In this document: positions 3,457-50,939 of the stretch, piece by piece | How positions within the stretch are numbered: the first letter of the stretch is position 1 | Layout: each line of letters opens with the position of its first letter | Source: Paraspadella gotoi | Lineage: Eukaryota; Animalia; Chaetognatha | Assembly: GCA_051294375.1 (NCBI GenBank) | Contig: CM119269.1 | Span: 17,033,143 to 17,097,142, forward strand | Length of the DNA stretch: 64,000 nt | Direction: 5' to 3' | Made by a program: the position numbers and the translations under genes | Notes under the pieces: model-generated | Databases searched by the model: none | The model's input: the letters and a program-made list of their open reading frames with translations, nothing else | What the model was told of the DNA's origin: nothing

Positions 3457-4880
3457 ACTTTGAGACCGTTAAAATTTTTATTTCAAACTCGCAACTGAAA
3501 TTAGCTGCCTGAGTCTGACATATATTATTATTTTAATTTAAGATTTTTTACATAAAATGAGTATATCCGGAAACCAAAAAATCCGACCGTTAGTTAAATA
3601 AGGCTCAGTACTTTAAAAAGTACTTTTATGTTTGGTATGTGTTGCTGTATAAAACTGCAGTATGAGTATAAGATAATCTTTATATTGGTTGTACCAATTT
3701 CTTAGTATGGTGTGAATTGGTCTAAAATGACGAAAAATTTGTAAATTCCAGTTGTTGATTCATTCACTTCTAAGTATATCACGTACTATTAGAGATAAAC
3801 AGGCCACTGAAGAGAAAATATTTACTTGGATTACTTGGAAATTTTAGGAAACCGGATTTCCTGATTATAAGTCTGACAATCGTAAAAAAAATTTAATAAA
3901 ATTAACATTAAGGTTTGATTACAATGATCGCATAGTTAATCAGACTCTATTATATTTCAATAATAATGGTTGCGCTATATTTAGGATCGCCTGTCTTTTA
4001 CTTCGTGTTTACATTCGTATCTGTTAATTGTTCAGTGTTACTTGTGTAGATTATACATGTCTATATATGTTTATCTTAGAATAAATTTCTGTTCTTTTTG
4101 TTAATTGTTGGAGAATCGGTCCTAGCTATATGTTAACATGTATTTATGTTTTATCACTCGTATTATGATTTTTAGTAACAACATTGAAGAGACAGCGGAT
4201 ATTGCATCTAGAAAGAAGCATTAAAAATTGTTACAACTTATAGTAAATGCAAAATAAGGGACTTCAAAAAATTAATTTTATCTTAGAAAGGGATATTATA
4301 TTATTTAGATGAAATTTTAATTCGTACTAACTACTAGAATATTAAGAAAACTATGTTAATATTTAGCAAAAAACTGTTTTCAAATGAAAATAAATTCACA
4401 TAAAAAAATAGCTCGCCAAAATGTCCGACGGTGGGACAAAGTTAGCGCCAAGCAAACGCCGCCCTACTGATGAAACGACCATGAACTGTCGTCGTCGCTC
4501 GGAAAGTCAGTCGCAGACGCGATGACGACGTTTATGATAAACTCGCTGTTTAAAAACATTTTCCTTTTACAAGTTTTCACTGTTTTGCCTACCTCATTCC
4601 TCACCTTTCCAAATCTACAACTGCCAATGCTTAAAATAATATTTTTTTATTCCTGTTCTTTTATCTTTTTTATCTTTTATCTTTTCAGAAAAAATAAAAA
4701 CTAGAAAAGAATTGAAAAAAAAATCTTACAAATACTAACTACAATCAATATTTTTTCCGTCAATCAATAATCGTATTTATAATATAATAATATATTATTA
4801 TATAATATTATATACGACTATGCTTTAAGAGCAATGACTTAACTTAAGTCAAAAGAACAGCGATAATTTTCCTGCGTCAG

Positions 4881-5417: not shown

Positions 5418-6779
5418 ATGAACCGGTCCGACGTTTTGTTTAAATGGATATCAGACGTACGAAAGACGTCAGCGTTTTCGTTTCGCGATGATTTGAAATC
5501 CAGCGATGTGGGCCAGTTCTGCTTCGACCTGATTGAATCGTCTGCGGCTGCGTTGTCTAGCGACCTTCCTTTGGTCGACGGCTTTGTCATTAAATGCGAC
5601 GCAATCATCGGCATTGCTTGGGAAAAACTCCACACTGGCACTTGGAAGGACGTAGATATCAAATGGCGACTCCTCTATTCTCACGCGTCGCTACACAAGT
5701 TTTTACACCTGTTTTCGGAAGACTGGGCGTCACTATCATCTTCCGACTACGTTGCGCTGCTTACCCGCGCTCTCCTTACACTCGACATGGCGCTACTTAT
5801 GGGCGGACCCATTGGCGGCGATGTTTTAACGAGATCGGCGTCACGGGTGCACGCGCTTCTCGTTGACGCACCATGCAAAAAAGTTGATGTTCCTTCCGTA
5901 AAAACCGAGCACAACGTCGCTGATTCCACTCCATTGGAGGAGCCTACCCTTTCGTCCCCGACAAATCCTTTCCTCTCGACAAAAAGATTAAAGCTTTCAT
6001 CTTCGCCCCTCCCACGCCTCTCCTGTCCTTCCATGGAGGAATTCGTCCGCGACTTCCTTCGTCCACAACTTCCCTGCATTATCACCGACCTTCAGCTCGC
6101 TTGGCCGGCCGCGAGTGCCGTCGTGGACGCCGCCGATTCTTCATCTCGACGTTGGAATCTCTCCTACCTTCGCCGCGTCGCCGGGCACCGTACGGTGCCA
6201 ATTGAAGTTGGAGCCAAGTACACCGACGACGCCTGGGGACAAAAACTTGTCACCGTCAATCAGTTCGTCGATGAGTACTTCAACGATGACCAAAATAGCG
6301 CCGAGGGCGGCGGAACAACTCGCCGCCCCGTCGGATACTTGGCGCAGCACAATCTCTTCGATCAAATCCCTGAGCTGCTCGATGACATCGTCGTCCCCGA
6401 TTTTTGCTACGCCTGCCTCGACGATAACGAAGAAGACGTGGACGTGAACGCCTGGTTCGGCCCCGCCGGTACCGTCTCTCCTCTTCACTTCGACCCAAAG
6501 AACAACCTCTTGGCGCAGGTGGTTGGTGCCAAATACATCAGGCTTTATTCGCCTTCCTCCTCGCCCTGCCTCTATCCCCACCCGCCTTCCGCCCTCATGT
6601 CCAACACGAGTCGAGTCGACGTGGAGGATGTCGATGCCGACGCCTTTCCGCTCTTCTCCGACGCCCCCTTTTGGGAGGCGCGGCTTCAGGCTGGAGAGAC
6701 GCTTTTTATTCCTGAGCGGTGGTGGCATTTCGTCAAATCGCTCTCTGTCAGTTTTTCCGTCAGTTTTTGGTGGAAATAG
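5418..6779 (+). CDS. KDM8: JmjC-domain protein 5 (KDM8/JMJD5), intronless CDS, about 453 aa
   Basis: Motifs [60 protein letters not shown] and SFSVSFWW, with the HxD...H metal triad. The first ATG is at 5418; an in-frame TAA lies at 5403. Confidence 0.93.
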
Positions 6780-7372: not shown

Positions 7373-10300
7373 ATGAACGGAAACGGCGCTAAAGTCAATG
7401 GCGAGGGCGAAAATGTTCAAACGACTTCCGACGCTGAATCCAACAGTCGGGTTGTCGACCTTTTCATCAAGGTGAGAGAAGTGACTAAAGTTTGCGAGAC
7501 AGAATTATGAGGTTGTGGCAACAGGAAGACATCTGTGATGGACGGCGTGTGAGGCATCTCCTGACAACTGGTGCTCAGGGCTTTGGACCTGCAGTGACCA
7601 CTCCATGTCACTGGGTTGTTTATGCCAACACCATCACACTTAACTAGCATGACCGTGACGGGATTGAAACCAGAACTCATTGATGGTGAACAAGTACTTA
7701 GCTGTCTTAGCCAATGGGAGGCGAATTTAGGATTTGCCACACATGCACCCCCAAGACAGCACACGAGGATGACCAAGCCCAGAATGACTGAGTGACTGAT
7801 TACGATTACGGATTACGACGAGAGTTTGTCCAACACGCGCAGAGCGAGCGAGTAGGGCATAGGCTTGGGATGCATACCCTTACGTGATGAAGTGAGCGAT
7901 GATGCGCAGCGCTTGCATGTTTGATAGTTTGGCTCACCATTTATGGCAACGGGAAGATGTGTGTGATGCCCAGGGTGTAAGGTATCTCCCGACAGCTGGC
8001 TCTCAGGGCTTTGAACATGCAGTGACCAACCCATGTCACTGACGTTTTTATGCCAACACCATCACACTAAAACAGCATGACCGTGAGGGGATTTTAACCG
8101 AGCACTCACGGTTGGTCCAAGCCAATGGAACTGAGCTGAGTTTCAACAAGCTATACAGGAGGCGAATTTAAGATTCGCATTTAGGATTCGTCACAGGGTT
8201 AAGTTTCTCTGAATATTGTCAAATGAATTTCGTTTTCTTTTTCACATAGGCATCCACCATCGATCCAGACAGAAAGGGAGCGTGCCCAATATGCCAGCGC
8301 TACTTCATGGCGCTCTACCTCAAATACGAAGCAGACGACATCGACCTCGTCGTCACCCGCGTAAAAAATACGAAGATGCAACCTGTTTGTCTCGACGGAC
8401 AAAACTTCCAGGTGACTACTCCTGACAATTTCATCGTCACATCTCGCTCTAATGTTCATATTATATTGTATGACAATGAATATTTAAGGCTCCTTCGATG
8501 GTGCACAACAACGAATTAAAAACGATGGAGCATATTGAAGACTACATCGCCACTGAATTGAGAGGTTTAGACCTCACGTCTACAGATAAAGCGCGCGAAG
8601 CCGTAGCAAACGTTTTCATCGTAAGTATTATTAAGTATTATTAACTTAGATATTCAATTACGCAAGTAACTTTGAATATAAATCTCTCTTTAAAACATCT
8701 TCATAATAGTAAATACTTATTTATTTTTTCTTAACAAATAAGTAAGAAGCGGTAATTAGTTTTAGTGCATACTGCATAGTAAAATTTCTAAATTTAACTT
8801 TAATTAAAATTCTAAAAGTGAGGAACGAACAACATTATACTAATGAACATTTATGTAATAAAAAAATTTATAATAAATTTTACAATTTACGCAGTAGGCC
8901 ATATTTATACTAGTACTAATCCAATAAATGTTAAAATTTCAAAACAGTTTTTTCTAAGATTTTTTTTGCAGATTTGGATTTATCATAAAAAGTTGATAAA
9001 AAGAAATATAACTCTTTTTGAAAAATTCCTTCATTAAGTGGGTCAAAAATTAGAAAAAGCTATATTTTAAGCTGAAAATTAACTTTTTATATATTAAATA
9101 GTTGTTTTAATTTTTAACCCACTTAATGAAAGAATTTTTAAAAATGATTTATATTTTATTTGATCAACTTTTGACGAGGAATTCAAATCTGCGATCAAAA
9201 TTAAAAAAGGCCTATTTTGAAAATTTTCGATTTTATAAGGATAGTACTATATATAAATTTAGCCTACTGCGAAAATTAAAAAAACAAAAAAATATTTTTT
9301 TTTACAAATTAATGTTCACTGATGGTATATTGTTCATAATTGACTTTTAGAATTTCCGTACGTAACTTTCACTACGCTCTACTGCATAGTGTTACAATTC
9401 TTTAGGCTTCAATACTTAAGCTTCTCAAATCTCAATTTTTCTTTCAGACATTCAGCAAGTACATGAGGGACCAAAAGACTGAACCAACAGGACTTCTCAA
9501 AGAGTTGATATTACTCGATAAGTACTTAGAAAAAAACGCAACGCCGTTCCTGTGCGGCGAACAGATGACATTCGCCGATTGCGAGCTTCTGCCCAAATTG
9601 CAGCACATTAGGGTCGCTGCAAAGGTAATTATATTATAATTATACAGTTTACTGTTTTGACCTAACAATTAATACCAATAATGGATTAGTTTAATACTGT
9701 TCCCATTAAAATTTGCATTTGGTCGGCTACCGCTACTATAAAGACTTCTTCTATAGGGCGACACATTTCTATCTAGTCTGAATTCATAAAATTTTATGTA
9801 TTATCTTATTGGCGTTTTTTATCTTGTTAATTATGCATTTGAAAGGCAAAAAAATCAAATATTACGAATAGAAATATGAGACCGACCAAAGTTTAGTCTC
9901 AGTTTCTTTGGTCTTACCAATTTTGATCAAACAGTTCGGTATTTAGGGAAAAAATCAAACTCACCTGTCACCATTTTCTTTTAGTTTTGGTTATTCTTTT
10001 TTATCCCATACTTTGACTTCGATGTGATTATTTACAGTAAGAATAATTTCTGGTCATAAACATACATGTTTATGAAAAATGTATATCTTTAAAATCCTGC
10101 AGTAAATGATACCGTTTTCATTTTATTACTATATAGGCGTACAAGAATTTCGAAATGCCCAGTGATGATCTGACATACGTTTGGAAGTACCTTAAAAATG
10201 CTTACTCACAGAAAGCGTTCACGGAATCTTGTCCAGCTGATCAGGTATTACATGATAATCAGATAATTATTAACTAGCTGTATCATTAGAAAATTCTTTG

Positions 10301-13116
10301 AGTATCTTATTAGATTATTAGTCTATTGTTTTTACTACAGTCCCTGAATATCGGTTGTGTACGTGGTTTTGATTAACTTTTAGGTTAATACTTAGTAAAG
10401 TATGAGTAAATGTTTCTTATGCCTATTTTTCGTGCATGTGCAATCACGGGACCATATAGAAATACGGTCAGGAGATCAGAAAGTCAATGCGGCATAGTTG
10501 GTGAAATACAGAAGGCTTCATATTATAAAATTTTTTTGTGACCAGAACACGTTCCGAGAAAACTACTGGACCAAATTTATTGAAATTTGGAATGAACAAT
10601 CCCTATGTGAATACAAATAGAAATATCAAGGCGAATTTCAATAATTGACCCCTGAGCCGAGATACCGGCCCTCTGGGGGGTCACCCATTGGGGCAAAAAA
10701 TGGTCAAAAATTTTTTACCAATTTTTCAAATATTTTTGTTTTGAACAGTCGCACAGACATTTACTATTCTACAAAAACCTATTTATTACCTCAAAAATGT
10801 TAGTTTACCTTAATTTTCATGAACATCAGCTGTTCAAGTCAGATTTGGAATAATTTTGGAAAATTGGAAGTAAAACGATGAACCATGCATCTTCAAACAA
10901 TGCTTAATTATTGAAAATTTATCAATTTTAGTTCTAAAATGTTTTTTTTACATGTTTAAAATGTAAATGCATCTGATGCTACTAAAAATATTAAAATATA
11001 AAAAAAAATTTTTAGCCTTTTTTGGCCCCCCAGGGGTCCAGCCCCAGGACCCCAGCCCCAGGACCCTGTATCTCTTGAATATCAAAATTCACCTCGATAG
11101 TTCCATTTATATCGTCATTAGGACTGTATATATAAAATTTTATAAAATTCGATCGAGTACTTTAGTGGGAACAGATTCTGGTCACAAAAAAGGGGTACTG
11201 TGGCGGTATATTCACACCGCCTCACGTCCACCATCGTTCAGCCAAATCCATTGGCTCAGAAGGGGAACACACCATCCCAGGCGTAGTGTTCCATCCACAG
11301 TCCTAACGACTTCCCTCTGCGTTGGCAAAGCGAGACCGTTCTAGGGTAACCGCGCCAGTGACTGGAAGTGTCACTGAGGGTCAGAAGCCCCCAAAGCCAA
11401 CAGTGAGATGCCCCATCCCAGTGGGCATCACAGGCAACCCGGCTGTTGCCATAGTACCACATTTTATAATATGAAGCCTTCTGTACTTTTTATCTCACCG
11501 TCTTGGTGTGATAATCGTTTAGAATTGCTTCTTTGTGCCGTCGTCGTCACTCTTATTATTTTATATAAAAACTACTACGGTTTATATAGGGGCTACGACG
11601 ACTTATAATTTTTTTTTTATATAAAAACTACTACGAATTACGATTGATTTTTATAAAAGTGTGTTATCATAGTAAGTTTAAAATCTAGATATTTCTTCTC
11701 ATCTTTAAGATCTTTAAAATTGTCATTTTATTTGAATTTCCTTCTCATTATGATTTACTGCAGTATGCAAACTAGAATATAGAACTTACTGTAATATGCA
11801 AATTAGTATATAGTATACTACAGTCCTGTGCGCGCCACTTTATGACTTTAAATTTTTTTTTTAAATGGAATCAATGTTTAAATTTTATTAAAATGGGTCG
11901 TGGTTTAAGAGATATGATTTTTTGAACTTGTTCCAAAACCAAAATTTACTTTCATCTGCATGGATTTTTTCTAACTAGAAAAATTATAAAATGAAAAAGG
12001 CTGTCATTGTGAAAAAGCTTTTCGTTTTGATATTCTGATTGTTCAGATACCCAATGAGTATATCTGTAAGATGAACACAAATTTTTAAACATTTTTTTTT
12101 TCATAAAAATTTATCTTATAATTGGAAGGTCTTATTCGAATGCAAATATTTTTTTTTAATTCGATAAGAAAGTAAGTAAGCTGGACTAATGGGAGTTGTA
12201 AAATAAAAAAATGTCAGCAATTTTTTTACTAGAGTACAAAATCTGAAGTCGCTATATCAGATAATTTAGGCACAGTATTGGATAATTTTATTTTATTCCG
12301 ATATGAAATCCGTATAAAAGCTTCAGAATTATTGTCTTTCATCGTATATTTTAATAACTTAAATTATTATTTAGGGTTTGGGGGCAATCCAGCTATCCCT
12401 CCGGATATGCAGTGTAATTTTTTGATATTTTTAATTTATTTTAAGTTTTGCAAAATATTATAAAAAAAAGATTATTCTTAAATTTATCAGATTTTTTTGC
12501 TTTCAACTTTGCAGTAGAGTACTCTATTTTAAAAAATAATTGCTCCTAAACGGATAGCCCAATTTTAATAAAATTTATGCTAAGATAATCATCTTTCAAT
12601 AAATTTTACTCACTTTTAAAATTTAAAAAAAAATTTAAGTATATAGGGTAATTTTTAAACTCTGAAATAAAGTGGCGCGTTTTTTTTTTTTGTTTTTTTT
12701 GCACCCGAATCCTTAAAGAATTATTTGGTTACCCCGACAATTTATACAATCTTTCATCAAAGACGATCGAAATTTTTGACGAACTTTGTGTTAACAAATA
12801 ACGAAGTTTTGTTGCACATACTAAGTCTAAGAACCATGTTTTTATTACCTAACTTATTAATTTTCTATGTTTTTATTTTGTTTGTCTGTTAATGTATTTG
12901 GGCATTAATCTGTATCATTACTTGATGCGAATAAAAATTCCCCATATATAGACTTAGTTTTTGGAGTTTAATTTTATTTGGCGTTAATTAAAAAATTCCA
13001 TGCGTTTTTAGGACATCATCGCCCATTACGAAAAACTTCCTTACAAACCGACTGAATGGGGGGCTAACTATAAGCTCAAATCTCCTACTTATTCCTTCGA
13101 CACTCCATTCGATTAA
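7373..13116 (+). CDS. CLIC: Chloride intracellular channel (CLIC/EXC-4 family), about 260 aa; exons 7373-7471, 8250-8411, 8489-8620, 9448-9624, 10137-10244, 13012-13116
   Basis: Motifs VDLFIKASTIDPDRKGACPICQRYFM, FLCGEQMTFADCELLPKLQHIRVA and AFTESCPADQDIIAHY. All five introns are GT-AG. Confidence 0.92.
7567..7648 (-). ncRNA. Type-P5 twister ribozyme (degenerate) in the 3' LTR; predicted cleavage between 7622 and 7621
   Basis: Reads GTGT-GA-TGG-TGTTGGCA-TAA-ACAA-CC-[CAGTGAC..GTCACTG]-CAGG-T-CCA-AAGC-CCTG. T1 CCA/TGG and P4 CAGG/CCTG pair perfectly. T2 is mutated (CC for GC) and P2 has one mismatch. Confidence 0.75.
7995..8076 (-). ncRNA. Type-P5 twister ribozyme (degenerate) in the 5' LTR; predicted cleavage between 8050 and 8049
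   Basis: Reads GTGT-GA-TGG-TGTTGGCA-TAA-AAAC-GT-[CAGTGAC..GTCACTG]-CATG-T-TCA-AAGC-CCTG, with P5 GCTGTT/GCCAGC. Confidence 0.72.
8780..9381. mobile_element. Foldback MITE (hAT-like) in CLIC intron 3, left end eroded
   Basis: Long internal inverted repeats, e.g. TTCATTAAGTGGGT / ACCCACTTAATGAA. The right end is ...ACGCTCTA. Direct repeat CTGCATAG at 8772-8779 and 9382-9389. Confidence 0.55.
11199..11453 (+). mobile_element. Solo LTR (255 bp) of a family related to the intron-1 element
   Basis: TGTGGCGG...GTTGCCATA with an exact 4-bp TSD GTAC (11195-11198, 11454-11457). It shares the 5' hairpin, CCATTGGCT, the twister core and the GATGCC..GGCATC hairpin with the intron-1 LTRs. Confidence 0.8.
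11321..11401 (+). ncRNA. Type-P5 twister ribozyme in the solo LTR; predicted cleavage between 11347 and 11348
   Basis: Reads GTTGGC-AAA-GCGA-GA-CCG-TTCTAGGG-TAA-CCGC-GC-[CAGTGAC..GTCACTG]-AGGG-T-CAG-AAGC-CCCC-AAA-GCCAAC. P5 and P3 are perfect and T2 is intact. P2, T1 and P4 each have a single mismatch. Confidence 0.75.
11486..11800 (+). repeat. Dispersed repeat family (probably HINE-like); further copies at about 17360-17745 and 17750-17950
   Basis: Shared blocks GCTTCTTTGTG..GTCGTC..GTCAC, TATATAAAAACTACTAC, TTTTATAAAAGTGTG..ATCATAGTAAGTT and CATTATGATTTACTGCA.TATGCAAA. Confidence 0.6.
11821..12710. mobile_element. Degenerate Tc1/mariner-type MITE, same family as 19994-21833
   Basis: TA|CAGTCCTGTGC start. 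Inverted GCGCCACTTTAT / ATAAAGTGGCGC. Shares GTGGTTTAAGAGATAT..TTTTTT.AACTTG with the 19994 copy. Confidence 0.55.
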
Positions 13117-21400: not shown

Positions 21401-24400
21401 ATGTAAAAAATAATTGAATTATTTTTTCGAAATAATCTATTTAATAATTAAAAATTATTAGTCTCGTCTATCATATATTGGTTGTACCAATTTCATATTA
21501 ATATTCCATAATGATATTACGATAACGATATATCTTTAAACAATTTCTTATTTCATTTTAGATGTCAGTGTTCCGTATTACTCCTGTTCCGAATTACCCT
21601 GCACTACCCTATAAAAAAATATTTAAAACAATTTTCAATAAATGATTTATCTTTGCTTTGGATTACTTTATTTAAAAAGATCACTGGATGGCCAAATTTT
21701 GATAAAATTTATGCCAAACTTTTCATTTTTTAATTAACTTTTATATATTTTTAAATTTTTTTAAAAAATTAAAATGTACAGGGTGATTTTTAAACACTGA
21801 AATTAAGTGTCGCGGTTTTTTTGCACAGAACTGTATTTACCATCCATTCTCCATCCTGTTGACATTTCATTTCCTTCAAATATGCGAGAGATAGTTTAAA
21901 GTAACAATTTCTTCCTAAAACATTTAGAATTCCAATATGGTGTTTCATAATTTCCGTGATGCAATTATTGTCAGTTGGATTTTGTAAATCTTGAAAAGTA
22001 ATTTATCAGATTATTGCCTGCAAGTATTGTCATTATATTTTTATATAACTTGTTTTACCTTGTGTGATTGAATTTTTTGAGCGTGTTCTCCGATTAAAAA
22101 GTCTGACTAAGCTTGTTGGGGGCATTCCCGGACTGATAAAAGGTTGAGAATTTTGTGTAGACACCTATACAGGAGATTGAAGTACTTAAATTAAATGTTA
22201 TTTTGCATTTCGATTTAAATAGCTAGTAAGCTACATTGTAGTTTCAACTTAAATTTTAAAAGCTTACCTCAAAAACAGTAAGCACAGCAAAATAGACGAA
22301 AAAAATAACGATTAACGTCTCTTTCATCTTGATAATTTAACATTTACTCGCTTGAATGAATATATTGATGCCGAGGTTTGTATCGTTTTTGCAGCGCGAA
22401 GATTTTATTGCGAAAATATAAAGAGTTCTCCTTTTTCGTCGCGCGTTAAGAAACGCGTGAGCGGGATTCACATGGCGACGCGGATTATAACATGAAGATT
22501 TTTTTAAAAACGAAATTAAGTGTTTTAACGTTACGTCAAGCACAGACAGTATAATTATTTTACATTTTAATTATTAAATAATTGAGTTACAATGCTGACA
22601 CAAATCCTTAAAATGTTTTTTTCATGTTTGAGATATAAACTTAAATCATAACATATGAAAAAAAATATTGGTATTTGTCTAACTGCATAGTACCCGAATT
22701 AGAATAAACCAAAATTTTAAATGATTGCTAAATTGTTGTTTTGAAATATTTTACATATTACTACAAACTTATGTTAGGAGTCGACGTCGTTTTAGAGATC
22801 GAGGAAGATTTTTTCAATGGAGATTTTCGTTCAAATCTGACTACAAAACAATATAAACGGTCCTGGGAAAAGTTCCGATAAAACATTGATGTAAAAAGAC
22901 TCGATTCAGATCCTGTTGCATCTGAAGGGCTCGCATTTTTTTTTCTCTTTATGATTAACCATCATTTTGACATCAAACCATGAGATTTAAATGGACTGGT
23001 CTGCTCAGGAAAAAATTTTCATCTCAATTTTTCTATATAAAATAAAGGGATTTCTCAACTTCATTACAATGTAAACGCATTTAAGGCATGTTGTGATTTT
23101 ACAATAAACTTAGAATTCAGGAATCCGATAGCCATATGTCTGAAGGGCTCTCAAAATTTTTCTTTACATTTTATTTAGTTATTTTAATATGAAACGATCA
23201 TGGTAAAGTGAATTAGTCCATTTTGATGAAATTTTTATTTAAAGTAAAAGTAAAAAAGGAGCTTACTATCGGAATTCTAAGAGTTTTCAACAATTCTTCT
23301 ATGGCGAAAATCTTCCAAAGAAGGGGTGGATTTTCCGAAGATTTTGGTTAATATTTTCTATATTTATGATCGGATTTTTTTGAAACTTAACAATAGCAAT
23401 ATTGCCATCATTCTACATTGGCCGGTAAAAGAATATATTAAAAAAACCTCTGGCTTTTTTCGCAAGAGCTTAGTCCTCCTTATGTACAGTAGTCGGACAG
23501 CTTGAAATTTCTTCCTTTAACTTTTTGAAATTTTGTTTTAGTACGATATTGATTTTTTTTAAAATAATTTTCAAGGGGTTTTGTTGATTTTTTTTTTTAG
23601 AATGAGACTGTTTTGAAGGACAAAGCAGCGCTTCCACCTTGCAGTCCCAACCGAGAAACTGCGTTAGCCATCGCGGAGTCAGACCAACTAAACGAGGCAA
23701 CGAAAAAATCTGTCTTAGGTTCGTTCCTAAATCTCGCATTTGATTCAATCTCACTTGGTGAAAATTATTCTTGTTCTTTGTCAGAAGGTATCGTTAACGA
23801 CATTGACGATCCGCTTCGAGTGTCGACGCTCGATATCGATACAGAGTCGTCGCCCCGAATCGATCGAAAATCGACGGAGGTTCTGATCGAAAAAGATGGT
23901 GAGGGGCTAGAAAATTTGTGATGGGGGAAGTGATGGAGCGAGCATTCTTATTCATCGAAAAACCTTCCCAGTTTCTGAAAAGCCGCCGTTTCCCGCTCGT
24001 AAAGGAGCGTGGCTCGTCTCGTCGCCTTCATCTCGGGCGGAGATCGAGGATCGAATTCGCGAGATGGCGGACGCCCTCTTTTGGGCGCTCGAGAGTCGGC
24101 GACTCGACCTGGCGCTAGATCGTCAACCGGCGCTTCTCATGGCGCCGTTCGAGAAGAAAGAGTTCGTTGGCCTCGATTCTGATTCCAGGTTTCGAAGGTC
24201 GTATTCGTGAAGATAAGAATACGCAATAAATATTTAATTTTTTTTTTCTCTCGTAGAAATCATCGCCGTCGTTGTCAAGGACGTCATTATAAACAAGTCG
24301 GTGACCTTTGCTTGCAATCCGGTTTGACCCACGAAGCCATTAGAAATTATCAGGTAAATATTTCTGTTGCTTTTCAAGTACTTCAATCGTTTAGTGCCAT

Positions 24401-30202: not shown

Positions 30203-32966
30203 CTAAGACAGCGAGCAGCCCCATCTGGATTGATCCGGGTAATGCGGGAAATAGCAGCGGAGATCTTGACCGAAGATCCAAAAAATACCCTCTTTTCCCT
30301 TGTAGCGGTACCGCACTTCGGTTACGGGCACAGCGGTCAGAGCGTGACGTTGTAACAGCGGGCGTTCGTACTCCATCAGAGCGGCATGCTCGTCCAACAG
30401 TTCCTGTAGTTGAAGGGGGGCAATAAACATCTAGGGCGAATTGCATAAAATTTCTCACGGCCTTGCTACACTGCCAGAATAACAACTCTGGGCAGGTGTG
30501 GGGGGCAGGGTTGTGACCGCAGACAGCGTGTGGAAATTAATACTCTTGTTTAATGCTCTTAACCCCTGCATAGCTACCTAGTTTATTCGGTAATCTCATA
30601 CATACCTGTCCAAAGTCAGGGGCAAGATAGCTTATTTATTAAATGAATGGATAATTTTATATTGGTTGTACCAATTTCATAAAATTCAGCTCCTTGTATT
30701 TGATGTTAGTGCGGAGTACAATAAGTATTCCCGATCTAATACTTAAGGGAGTGGTCTTTTCATACAATTGAAACATTCTTTGAAATATTATACCACTTCA
30801 TTGATAGGGAAGCCAGGTACTCTGGGAGTGAATAAACGAGACTGAGAGAGAGTCTTGATTGAAACCTTGCAGGGACCTGCTATGTCATTATCTTGTAAGA
30901 GTGATGGAGGCCTTAAACCACCAAAGCCTGTCCAAAGTCAGGGGCAAGATAGCTTATTTATTAAATGAATGGATAATTTTTTATATTGGTTGTACCAATT
31001 TCATAAGGGAATATAATTTGACTAAGGTCTTGTGATCGATTAGTATTGTTATTGTTAGTATTTTTTTTTTTTCGTGGTTAAGTGAACATAAATATTAAAG
31101 TAACCATCGTTAAAAAAAATTGAACCATAGAAACTTCGGTAACCGATCCTTTTTGTCTCACCTTGGATTTCGCTTCGACTTGCGGCGCAGAACGCCGGCG
31201 AATGTGCGTCACCGTTGTTCGAGTTTCTTCGAAGACGACGACTCCCGTTTCGCCGCGTAAAACTTCTGGCGGAATAGAAGACGTCTCGAAGGCGTGGTCG
31301 CTTTTGTGTACGTGGAAACTGATGCCGAGCATGACGCAGTATTTTAGCCGGCAACTTCCCCCGCATCCCTTGCACTTTTGTCTCCCGTCGCCTCCGCACG
31401 TGGCGCATTTCTTCTTGCCGCGGCCATGGCAGAAGGCGCACTTGGACCGGCGACCCTAGAGGTCGGAAGATATCGGTTAAGGATAAGGGGCAAGTAACAA
31501 TTTAGGTTAAGTTTTAACTTTCGCCGACCGCGGTTATGGCGGCTTTGGAAAAATTATTTAAAAATAATTAAAAAAGAAAATATTACTTAATTACCCTAAC
31601 CCCTCCCTAACCCTGGTCGGCGAATGTAAAAGTAACCCACAATTTTAAATCATCGCCTTCACGATCACACTTGCCTGCCTCGTTGTTCTCCCCGAACCGT
31701 GGCACTTGGTACACTTGACGTTCCTCTTGGCCTTGCACTTGACGCACTTTGCGGCGCCGCGTCCGCGGCACTGCACGCAGTTTCTCAACGACGCCGTGTG
31801 TGGCACTTCAACGTTGGAAGCGTGGGGTGTGAAGGCGGCGGGGGGTCGTGCGGGGATGGACCAAGGGTCGGGCGGATCTCCGTTCTCGGGCCCGTTGACC
31901 GACTGACCCTCGAATGGATCTGAGCTCCAGAACACCGTCCGCGATTCGGCGAACGATTCGACAAAGTAGTGCAGCGCTGGCGACGGGGTCACCGAGATAT
32001 ATCGCATCTTCTTTGCAGCCGCGGTGCCCCAGCAACGATTGCTCTTCACCATGAGGAGCACCGCTTTTCTGCAAGAAAAAGTAGCGAGAGAAAATTTTGG
32101 AGGTGGTGGATAGGCTAAATGTGAAGGAATGAGCGGGAAAAAAATTATTATGCTAAACAAACATGAAAGAAGCTAGAAGCTAGCATGAAAGAAATCTCAA
32201 CAATCATGGCTAAAAGTAATCAGCCCCTTGCCCTGCTCTGTGTTCAGCATTCGCACGACCGTTTTCATTGTTGAATTTTTTCTTCTCTGCGCTAGCCCCT
32301 CTACCGTTTGTCAACGACTACTAGTACTATGTACATAACACTATTAACAGTCCTACTAAATTCTAATCCTCAGTCTCTATAAACCTATTAAGTTTTATAC
32401 CTAATCGTCCTCTCGTCGGGCACGAGGTCGGGCACTTCCAGTCGCCTCCCGCCCGCCAAACCCTCCAGCGAGCTCTTCAGAACGGGCGGCGGTGGCGGCG
32501 GCGCGTTGGCGTATTCCAGTACGTAGTTCTCCAACGCCTCCGTCTGGCGTTCATCTTCGCTGTCGTACTCTTCCTCGTAGTCGTCGTCCTGCAGGAAACT
32601 CCCGTCGACGCAGCTGCTGCGACCGCTGCGCGATTCCAACGCCGCTTCGTCGTCGTCGTCGAAGTCGTCGTCATCCTCCTCCGCGTAACGACTTTCGAAG
32701 TCCGCGTTTTCCTCGTCCTCTTCCTCGCTGTTCAACGGCGCCATCTCCGCGAGCGTCGGCTCCGCCATCTTGCGTTCGCCTACGGAATTCCGCGCTCGGT
32801 CGAGGAGGTTCGAGTCGAATCTATTGAAGGTGGCGCCGTGGTCGAGTTGCTTCGTAGAGAACGTGACGTTTTTGACCGTGGATGCGGAAGAGTCACTGGC
32901 GGCGCTGTTGGGGTCGTCGTCGGCGTCGTCCTCTTGACGTCGAATGGCGGGAAAATGATTGTTCAT
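30203..32966 (-). CDS. SSUH2: SSUH2 homolog (DnaJ-type CxxCxGxG zinc fingers, C-terminal CaaX), about 484 aa; exons 32966-32401, 32068-31675, 31455-31162, 30403-30203
   Basis: Motifs CWGTAAAKKM, ESFAESRT, GPENGDPPDPWSI and VEVPHTAS. Six CxxC motifs, then LLQRHALTAVPVTEVRY and YPDQSRWGCSLS*. Exon phases are consistent. Confidence 0.88.
30815..31005 (+). repeat. Dispersed repeat ending in the hairpin ATTGGTTGTACCAAT; other copies or fragments at 30606-30680, 40478-40657, 1755-1783 plus 2539-2572, 3684-3698 and 21477-21491
   Basis: Directly alignable blocks CTCTGGGAGT.AATAAAC, AGAGTCT.GATTGAAA, GTCCAAAGTC.GGG.CAAGATA.CTTATTTATT and the terminal hairpin. Confidence 0.75.
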
Positions 32967-36099: not shown

Positions 36100-42440
<6,341 letters not shown>

Positions 42441-48535: not shown

Positions 48536-48634
48536 AAAAAAGGTTTAAGGGTGAAGTGTCCAGGGTTAACATTAGGGATAAAGAGGCTTTAGAGTTAGAA
48601 TTAGGTAAAGGATTTGATATTGGCTTTACAGATG

Positions 48635-50897
48635 TATTCCTGTGCAAAATTTATTCCTGTGCAAATTTATTCCTGTGCAAATTCATTCCGGTGCAAATTC
48701 AGTCCTGGTGGCAAATTGCATTCCTGTGTAAATCAATCCTTTGCAAAATTCATTCTTGTGCAAATTCAATCCGTGTGCAAATTCAAGTCCTGGAGCAAAT
48801 TCAGTTCTATGAGCTAATTCATCCCGTGAGAAAATCATTCCTGTGCAAATTTATTCGCTGTTGGCAAATTCATTCCTGTGCAAATTCATTCCTGTAAGCA
48901 AATTCAAATCCTGGTGCAATTCTTTATGTTAGCAACAAATCTATGCCCCTGTGCAAATTCAATTCCTAGTGCAAATTTTTTCATGATGTTATGATTCATC
49001 CTGTGCCAATTCATTTCTGTGCAAATTCTTGCCTGTGCAAAATTCATTCCTGTGCAAATTCATTCCTAGTGCAGAATTCCAAACCCTGTGCAAATTCATG
49101 TCCTGTGCAAATTGCAGTTCCTGTGCAAATTTAATTCCTGTGCGGCAAATTCCATTCCTTGTGCAAAAATTGCATTCCCTGTGCAAATTTAATTCCTGTG
49201 CAAATTCCATTCCTGTGCAAATGCCCAGCCCTGGTGCAAATTCATTCCTGGTGCAAAATTTATTGCGCTGTGCAAATTCATTCCTGTGCAAATTCCAACC
49301 GCTAGTGCAAATTCAATTCCTGTGCAAATTCATTCCTGTACAAATTTATTCCTTGGGCAAATTCATATCCTTTGTGCAAATTTATTCCTGTGCAAATATT
49401 CCTGTGCAAATTCATTCCTGTGCAAATTCATTAACTGTGCAAATTCATTCCTGTGCAAATTAATTCCTGTGCAAAATTTCATTCCTGGCAAATTCAATTC
49501 CTGTGCAAATTGAAATCCGGTGCAAATTTCACTTTGCTGTAACAATTTAATCCTGTGCAAAATTCATTCCCTGTGCAAATTCAATCCTGTGCAAATTCAT
49601 GTCTAGTGCAATTTATTCAGTGCACAATTTATTCCTGTGCAAATTTATTCCTGTGGCAAATTTATTTCCGCTGCAAATTAATTCCTGTGCAACTTCATTC
49701 CCTGTGGCAAATTCATTGCCTGTGGCAAATTCATTCCTGTGCAAATTCTTTCCTGTGCAAATTCATTTCCTAGTGCAAATTCAATCTGTGGGCAAATTCA
49801 TTCCTGTGCAAATTCATCCTTTGCAAATTCATTCTTGTGCAAATCAATCCTGTGCAAATTCAATCCTGAAGCGAAATTCATTCTTGAGCTAATTCATCCC
49901 TGAGAAATTCGATTCCTGTGCAAATTTGTTCATGGTGCATATTCATTTCCTATGCCAATTTTTGCCTGTGTGCAAAAATTTATTCCTGTTGCATATCATT
50001 CCTGTGGCAGAATTCATTCCTGTTACGAAATTCAATCCTGTGCAAATTCCTTCTGTTTTAAAATGTTATCCCTTTGCAAATTAATTCCTGTGAAAACTTG
50101 TTCTTTTAAAAAAATGTATTCCTGTGCAAATCTAGTCCGCTGTGCGAAATTCATTCCTTGTGCAAATTTTTCAATGTTGTAATATTCAATCCTGTGCCAA
50201 TTCATTCCTGTGCAAATTTATTCCTGTGCAAAATTAATTCCTGTGCAATTCAGTCCTGTGCAAAATTCATTCCTGTGCAAATTTCAACCCTGTGGCAAAT
50301 TCCATTCCGTGGCAAATATCATTCCTGTGCAGATTTATTCCTGGTGGCAAATTCCATTCATGTGCAAATTCATTCATTGTGCAAATTGAATTCCTGTGCA
50401 AATTCATTCCTGTGCAAAGTTCAATTCCTGTGCAATTTCAACGCCTGTGAAATTCATTCCTGTGTAGATTTATTCCTGTGGCAAATTCATTCCTGTGCAA
50501 ATTCCATCATGTACAAATTCATCCTGTGCGAAATTCATTCCTGTGGCAAAAGTTCATTACTGTGCAAATATTAACTCAATGTGCAAATTCCATGTTTGTC
50601 ACAAATTTTAATCCTGTGCAAATTCATTGTGCCGCTGTGCAAATCCATTCCTGTGCAAATTCATTCTGTGCCAGAAATTTTATTCGCAAGTGCAAATTTA
50701 TTCCTGTTCAAATTTTATTCCTGTGGCAATTTATTACTATGAAGAATCTATTCTATGCAAATTCATATCATGTGGCAAACTTATTCATGTTCATATTAAA
50801 TCCTGTGCAAATTCATATTTGTGCAAATTCATGTTCTGTGCAAAATTCGTTCCCTGTGCAAATTCTTGCCTTTTCAGAATGTAATTTCTGCGCAAAA
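48635..50897. repeat. About 16-bp satellite array (CCTGTGCAAATTCATT)n, roughly 2.3 kb
   Basis: More than a hundred imperfect units. The array explains the spurious Cys-rich ORFs in this interval. Confidence 0.92.
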
Positions 50898-50939
50898 TTT
50901 ATAACTAAGTGATAGGATTATTTTTGTTAGTGTGAAAAA

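Follow-up and report, generated by a model that had tools for sequence, protein, structure and literature searches.

Covarying type-P5 twister-like motifs in long terminal repeats of the chaetognath Paraspadella gotoi

Results

The window analyzed here, a 64,000-nucleotide stretch of the Paraspadella gotoi genome (contig CM119269.1), contains a CLIC-family gene at about 7400 to 13116 on the plus strand. Two related repeats lie in its introns: an element with two long terminal repeats (LTRs), antisense in intron 1, and a solo LTR, sense in a later intron (Table 1). All three LTR copies carry a motif with the stem order and core bases of a type-P5 twister ribozyme, and the stems of this motif differ between the two LTR lineages mostly by changes on both sides of a pair. 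On balance, we favor the interpretation that the core of the solo LTR is a type-P5 twister, common with the sister LTRs via paired changes, which would cut the element RNA once per LTR, and that the resulting unit RNA would be circularized and copied by a helper LTR retrotransposon.

Table 1. Coordinates of the repeats and of the twister-like motifs (P, stem; T, pseudoknot)
Feature	Position	Strand	Remarks
Solo LTR, 255 bp, GC-rich, ends TGTGGC...GCCATA (TG...TA)	11199-11453	+	sense in CLIC-gene intron
Left GTAC, candidate 4-bp target-site duplication	11195-11198	+	flank match
Right GTAC	11454-11457	+	flank match
5' hairpin of solo LTR, 6 bp	11202-11221	+	z -3.28, 2/200 shuffles
Downstream hairpin of solo LTR	11407-11429	+	traceable in both intron LTRs too
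Type-P5-order twister-like motif, 81 nt	11321-11401	+	in solo LTR
P5	11321-11326/11396-11401	+	solo motif stem
P2	11330-11333/11350-11353	+	solo motif stem
P3	11356-11362/11370-11376	+	solo motif stem
P4	11377-11380/11389-11392	+	solo motif stem
T1 (3-bp pseudoknot)	11336-11338/11382-11384	+	solo motif
T2 (2-bp pseudoknot)	11354-11355/11387-11388	+	solo motif
GA	11334-11335	+	solo motif
P1 segment	11339-11346	+	solo motif
UAA	11347-11349	+	solo motif; predicted cut between 11347 and 11348
5' LTR of two-LTR element, 254 bp	7942-8195	-	twister-like motif 7995-8076
Non-coding internal region, 200 bp	7742-7941	-
3' LTR of two-LTR element, 228 bp, inverted ends TGTGGCAA...TTGCCACA (8-bp perfect)	7514-7741	-	twister-like motif 7567-7648
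Type-P5-order twister-like motif without P3, second repeat family	30890-30950	+	family copy ~30755-31012
Second family copies	30755-31012, 40420-40663, 30605-30682, 3672-3704, 21474-21497	+	shared 3' end, variable 5' truncation
Second family fragments	1754-1783 and 2538-2579

The solo LTR and its sister element

An earlier sequence-only reading of this DNA had described an exact GTAC target-site duplication around the solo LTR, and the two tetramers are indeed present at its borders. A match of 4 flanking bases has a chance of 0.003 to 0.007. The insertion lies inside the right arm of a roughly 1-kb element with inverted repeats that resembles a miniature inverted-repeat transposable element (10504-10643 and 11080-11191 plus 11461-11488). 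This arm is about 10 bases longer than its partner arm, with GTAC among the extra bases, and we treat the duplication of the solo LTR as a candidate. The only relatives of the solo LTR found in the window are the two repeats of the minus-strand element in CLIC intron 1, to which it is 67.7% (155/229) and 65.8% (146/222) identical; the alignment score is 128, compared with a maximum of 81 among 300 shuffles. Identity to the sister LTRs is 62 to 65% within the motif and 66 to 71% in the rest of the LTR, so that the motif is not conserved above the remainder. Upstream of the ribozyme motif, all three LTRs keep CCATTGGCT, which we take to be a possible reverse CCAAT promoter box (11248-11256 in the solo LTR; 8120-8128 and 7709-7717 on the minus strand).

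The two-LTR element is 682 bp long in all, with a longest ATG-initiated open reading frame (ORF) of 73 amino acids and flanks (ACCC/ACCT) that match at three of four bases. A TGG-initiated motif resembling a primer-binding site (PBS) begins at 7939, 2 nt past the 5' LTR, and presumably does not correspond to tRNA-Met; a G-run stands directly before the 3' LTR, in the position of a polypurine tract (PPT). The two LTRs are 80.5% (182/226) identical to each other and differ by 19 transitions and 25 transversions. PBS- and PPT-like motifs are thus in place, but no Ty3/gypsy helper was found, and no gag/pol-like ORF was recognized by eye among the 60 listed ORFs of at least 120 amino acids, on which no domain scan was run.

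The twister-like motif

The elements of the solo LTR motif have the type-P5 arrangement (PMC5408937): P5, P2, GA, T1, an 8-nt P1 segment, UAA, P2, T2, P3, P4, the L4 loop, P4, and P5. A single gap suffices to align its core (11321-11401) to 7995-8076 and 7567-7648 on the minus strand. The unpaired core bases, including the general base G and the general acid A, are identical at 8 of 8 positions in these three motifs and in a fourth, described below, from a second repeat family. The sequence-only reading had listed the invariant twister residues as identically spaced; GA, UAA, GC, and GGU-CAG-AAGC-C are all present, but the P3 loop is 1 nt shorter in the solo copy. Its solo stems are also as written, whereas the intron 1 consensus to which it compared them combines two decayed copies, and the given P2, P5, or 5' hairpin arm is whole in neither. 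The 5' hairpin of the solo LTR is real (z -3.3), but the claim that it covaries stands only weakly, as the comparison involves indels and mismatches.

Pairing in the solo motif amounts to 6/6 in P5, 3/4 in P2, 3/4 in P4, and 7 bp in P3, the last invariant in sequence across the three LTR copies (7/7 pairs). The 3-bp pseudoknot forms 2/3 pairs in the solo copy and 3/3 in the other three motifs; the 2-bp pseudoknot is complete in the solo copy, in the 5' LTR (with one G·U), and in the second family, and reaches 1/2 in the 3' LTR. In the minimum free energy structure of the solo motif, P5 and P3 have probabilities of 0.95 to 1.0 and three P2 pairs about 0.65. A descriptor fitted to the solo motif had no match when the LTR was dinucleotide-shuffled 150,000 times or in 60 shuffles of the window. 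A second, relaxed descriptor found exactly four motifs in the window, with scores of 15, 13, 13, and 13; in 150 shuffled windows, 22 matches scored 11, 17 scored 12, and a single one scored 13, the highest value reached.

Rfam scans gave no hammerhead match; what the LTRs contain instead is the twister-like motif. Across its full model (1-58/58), Twister-P5 (RF02684) aligns to a 93-base stretch of the 3' LTR in the same register as the sequence-only reading, and gives no match to the solo or the 5' LTR. An alternative type-P1 reading of the 3' LTR, which Rfam scores at 27.6 bits, was rejected: GA and the 3-bp pseudoknot fail there, and this register is absent from the other two copies. The family pattern matched nothing in viral contigs or in prokaryote genomes; two metagenome matches were discarded as bacterial-looking chance matches that lack the upstream core.

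Paired changes between the LTR lineages

We next compared 28 base pairs between the solo motif and both sister LTRs. Eight pairs had changed on both sides, 2 on one side, and 18 not at all (Fisher's exact test, p=2.5e-5). The p value was 0.001 when the invariant P3 and T2 were left out, and for the 13 pairs set by the twister motif alone (P2, T1, P1, and P4), there were 7 double-sided changes versus 1 single-sided change (p=0.005). Over the whole 28-pair structure, pairing holds in 89% of 84 cells, and double-sided change is seen in 6 pairs; when partners were slid, the values were 30 to 43% and 0 to 1. The 8 double changes comprise 4 Watson-Crick swaps, 1 G·U, and 3 A·C mismatches in the solo copy, leaving 5 of 8 paired. 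The sister LTRs served as a control, taken as identical at insertion on the assumption of a single LTR insertion, and differ from each other by 10 single-sided and no double-sided changes. Since sister LTRs show only single-sided changes and the lineages mostly double-sided ones, postinsertion decay and lineage divergence look different. Together, these results support the view that the LTR lineages diverged under a pairing constraint, and very likely that the fold is twister derived.

These data also define how far the earlier claims reach. Structure was said to be conserved over sequence between at least two LTR families; the pairing constraint and the double-sided changes bear this out, but the comparison is of one copy with two. 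Selection was said to act on self-cleavage, and while a pairing constraint on the fold is apparent, cleavage as the selected trait goes beyond the data. The remaining mismatches had been attributed to postinsertion decay; active twisters can, however, accommodate A·C pairs (PMC11662667), so those of the solo copy need not be postinsertion damage. Decay at a CpG, given as an example, lacks support: the CpG observed/expected ratio of the window is 1.29 (the LTRs themselves are CpG poor, at 0.36 to 0.6), and the sister LTRs show the 19 transitions versus 25 transversions noted above.

A second repeat family with the same fold

A model built from the three LTR copies found no additional LTR copy in the window, and its next-ranked match, at 16.7 bits, was 30890-30950 in an unrelated-looking repeat: there is no similarity flanking the motif between the LTRs and this second family. 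Here P5 pairs at 6/6, T1 at 3/3, T2 at 2/2 with a changed pair, and P4 at 4/4, while the P2 3' strand is one base short. With P2 excluded, 17 of 17 scored positions pair, and relative to the solo motif there are 13 double and no single changes, including one pseudoknot pair, in a mapping made by motif. The search model scores nested stems and so favors them in its match; pseudoknots are unscored and hence unfavored. The fold energy of this motif is ordinary (z -0.3).

Copies of the second family share a strand and a 3' end and are variably truncated at the 5' end, a pattern described for Penelope-like elements in the available text of bioRxiv 10.1101/2021.04.23.441226, and the family is probably Penelope-like. 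One short copy sits ahead of a longer one, forming a partial tandem, a short reading frame ending just upstream is retained in two copies, and the copy at 40.5 kb has lost the motif core by deletion. In the longest copy, about 56 nt separate the motif from the shared 3' end, compared with 52 to 53 nt in the LTR copies.

The P1 segment

The P1 segment measures 8, 8, 8, and 6 nt in the four motifs and is fully self-complementary in each, counting G·U. By comparison, it spans 15 to 24 nt in 18 distinct well-formed phage twisters of type-P5 order, from 44 loci examined (loci L003-L029, L129, and L131; some have P3). None of 89 chance matches reached the 8/8 self-complementarity; these are viral loci that match the P5-order pattern with an 8-nt P1, none convincing and several duplicates. 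The 6-mer is too short for a 2-bp hairpin and has a self-duplex energy of -9.1 kcal/mol; the 8-mer self-duplexes have -5.4 and -4.8 kcal/mol. In addition, a 3-bp hairpin at 11335-11347, with equivalents in both sister copies, forms between the T1 3' strand and a stretch made up of the scissile U and the last part of the P1 segment. It shows two double-sided Watson-Crick changes, was found post hoc, and is absent from the second family. Neither the self-complementary P1 nor this competing hairpin figured in the sequence-only reading.

Other features of the window

By gene content, namely the CLIC and JMJD5 genes, the window is animal DNA. The JMJD5/KDM8 gene (5418-6779, plus strand) has no introns; its nearest database relative is 48% identical, and the best named one about 45%. 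A degenerate tandem array with a unit of 16 to 17 nt occupies 48600-50900.

Discussion

In the available text of PMC8501958, twisters are cut at a U/A step. From twister biochemistry, the expected cut in the solo motif is at U11347/A11348; G11334 would act as the general base and A11348 as the general acid. Transcription through both LTRs of the intron 1 element followed by two cuts would, by analogy, release a 428-nt monomer running from 8049 to 7622; lacking terminal redundancy, it would be circularized and primed by a tRNA, as in plant retrozymes, and a helper of the Ty3/gypsy type would integrate the copy. Because the solo LTR lies in sense orientation within a CLIC intron, an active ribozyme there would cut the host pre-mRNA.

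In the data of PMC11662667, mean cleavage drops from 0.76 to 0.65 when the 3-bp pseudoknot has a single flaw and to 0.53 when the 2-bp pseudoknot has one, and natural twisters tolerate flaws in P1, P2, and P4. The flaw of the solo copy is in the 3-bp knot, and that of the 3' LTR is of the 2-bp-knot kind. With its 2-bp pseudoknot intact and no catalytic base missing, the solo copy may still be capable of slow cleavage.

Several observations weigh against a cleaving, circle-forming element. No copy of the motif reaches the Rfam gathering score: the Twister-P5 alignment to the 3' LTR scores 23.4 bits (gathering score, 37.6), the solo LTR gives only partial twister-P1 matches of 17.4 to 19.8 bits (threshold, 67.2), and the 5' LTR scores just 11.8 bits. 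A model built from the 18 phage twisters misses the solo motif; its sole match is to the L4 hairpin in the 3' LTR. Because the Rfam P5 matches are below threshold or absent and the phage-built model misses the solo copy, we regard the motif as a twister-class candidate and do not place it in RF02684. In the pseudoknot-free ensemble, the solo P1 consists of two G·U pairs with a probability of 0, and P4 in the twister register has a probability of 0.12, compared with 0.85 for a competing hairpin. Both intron copies fold like shuffles (z -0.5 and -0.4), and the predicted circle of the decayed two-LTR copy is not unusually stable (z +0.8). On P2, T1, and P4 alone, 16 of the 89 chance matches reach the 8/11 pairs of the solo motif; with P3 and P5 added, the solo motif scores 21 and the best chance match 20. 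Both descriptors were composed after the motifs had been seen, the LTR comparison covers three copies from two lineages, and the tests against each sister LTR separately are weaker (p=0.014 and 0.0013).

The most serious alternative, to which we give a real though clearly smaller chance, is that an active twister in the LTR of an autonomous LTR retrotransposon sets an RNA end or allows cap-independent translation, without any circle, the 682-bp element being a deletion derivative. It fits the same covariation evidence and the ordinary stability of the predicted circle, and the twister variants located 5' in Perere-3 cleave in vivo while still allowing the sequence downstream to be translated (PMC8501958). 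However, cuts in both LTRs would leave the RNA without the terminal redundancy on which strand transfer depends, the reason for proposing circles in retrozymes (PMC4918200), and the by-eye inspection of the 60 ORFs likewise disfavors an autonomous element.

It is improbable that a twister-descended fold has been kept as a noncleaving structure, such as a packaging, dimerization, or priming signal. The invariant, fully paired P3 and the abnormal P1 would suit such a role, as would the hairpin that would block the 3-bp pseudoknot and the scissile U, which is paired in each of the three LTR copies and shows two double-sided changes. Yet that hairpin is absent from the second family, and the four motifs retain every one of the 8 unpaired core bases, more than a purely structural role calls for.

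We think it very unlikely that the three repeats are Penelope-like pseudo-LTRs or tail fragments rather than true LTRs. The second family, with its Penelope-like truncation, does have this fold, located about as far from the 3' end, but variable 5' truncation without fixed TG/CA ends, PBS, or PPT fits that family and not the LTR copies. These have fixed ends in 3/3 copies, inverted TG/CA termini (perfect over 8 bp in the 3' LTR), 4-bp flanks, the TGG motif 2 nt past the 5' LTR, and the G-run ahead of the 3' LTR, and their flanks do not resemble the second family. That a GC-rich repeat merely folds this way by chance, as the subthreshold Rfam scores and the weak folding of the intron copies might suggest, is scarcely credible and strongly disfavored by the shuffle and covariation tests.

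Taken as a cleaving LTR element, the repeats most closely resemble the LTR retrozymes of plants (Cervera et al. 2016, PMC4918200; this and the comparisons that follow draw on the available parts of the cited reports). Both have two LTRs, a short noncoding middle, a 4-bp target-site duplication, PBS- and PPT-like motifs, solo LTRs, and one ribozyme per LTR. They differ in host (plant versus animal), in ribozyme (a type III hammerhead versus a twister-like motif), and in size, with LTRs of 300 to 400 bp versus 228 to 255 bp and an interior of 300 to 600 bp versus 200 bp. Plant retrozymes occur as unit-length linear and circular RNAs in vivo; for our element such RNAs are predicted. Judged by these comparisons, the element is retrozyme-like and, because its ribozyme class differs, lies outside the plant family. 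With type-P5 twisters (RF02684; PMC5408937, PMC10085705), the motif shares stem order, core bases, and both pseudoknots; it departs from them in its subgathering score, the self-complementary P1 of 6 to 8 nt, and the presence of both P3 and P5 in the LTR motifs. The T-variant twisters of Perere-3 from Schistosoma mansoni (PMC8501958) likewise belong to an animal retroelement and have a weak or missing P1, but they are of type-P1 order and sit at the 5' end of a non-LTR element. An LTR-type reverse transcriptase lies within 10 kb downstream of 1.6% of T-variant twisters, and the available text of that report claims no LTR embedding. The metazoan non-LTR retrozymes, with amphibian hammerheads that act as dimers (PMC7229834), are also from animals and have a weak palindrome-capped helix, with more cleavage in dimers; unlike our element, they are tandem repeats with a type I hammerhead and without LTRs, PBS, or PPT.

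In the available parts of the literature, LTR retrozymes are found mainly in plants and tied to hammerheads, and animal retrozymes lack LTRs, PBS, and PPT (PMC7229834, PMC11722881, bioRxiv 10.64898/2026.07.22.740005). A full-text search of the accessible, mostly open literature returned no report, as judged by titles, abstract openings, and retrieved passages, of a twister inside an LTR or of an animal LTR retrozyme; the supplement of PMC11662667 on genetic contexts may hold LTR-embedded cases.

The palindromic P1 raises a further idea. Amphibian hammerheads whose weak helix is palindromic show better cleavage in dimeric form (PMC7229834), and the four motifs may work as dimers too. P1 is dispensable in twisters (PMC11662667), so they may equally act as monomers. 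It is tempting, if doubtful, to go further and picture animal LTR retrozymes with a dimer-activated twister, whose palindromic P1s would pair between copies and displace the blocking hairpin, so that cutting would occur only when both ends meet; the pairing would join either both LTRs of a single transcript or two separate RNAs, and the LTR lineage would have obtained its ribozyme from the co-resident Penelope-like family.

If animal LTRs do carry a twister, the strategy of cutting and circularizing arose again with another ribozyme class, and twisters, whose biological role stays mostly open, would have a concrete job. With a palindromic P1 in three sequence lineages, a dimer-activated twister would be directly testable with RNAs of 60 to 80 nt.

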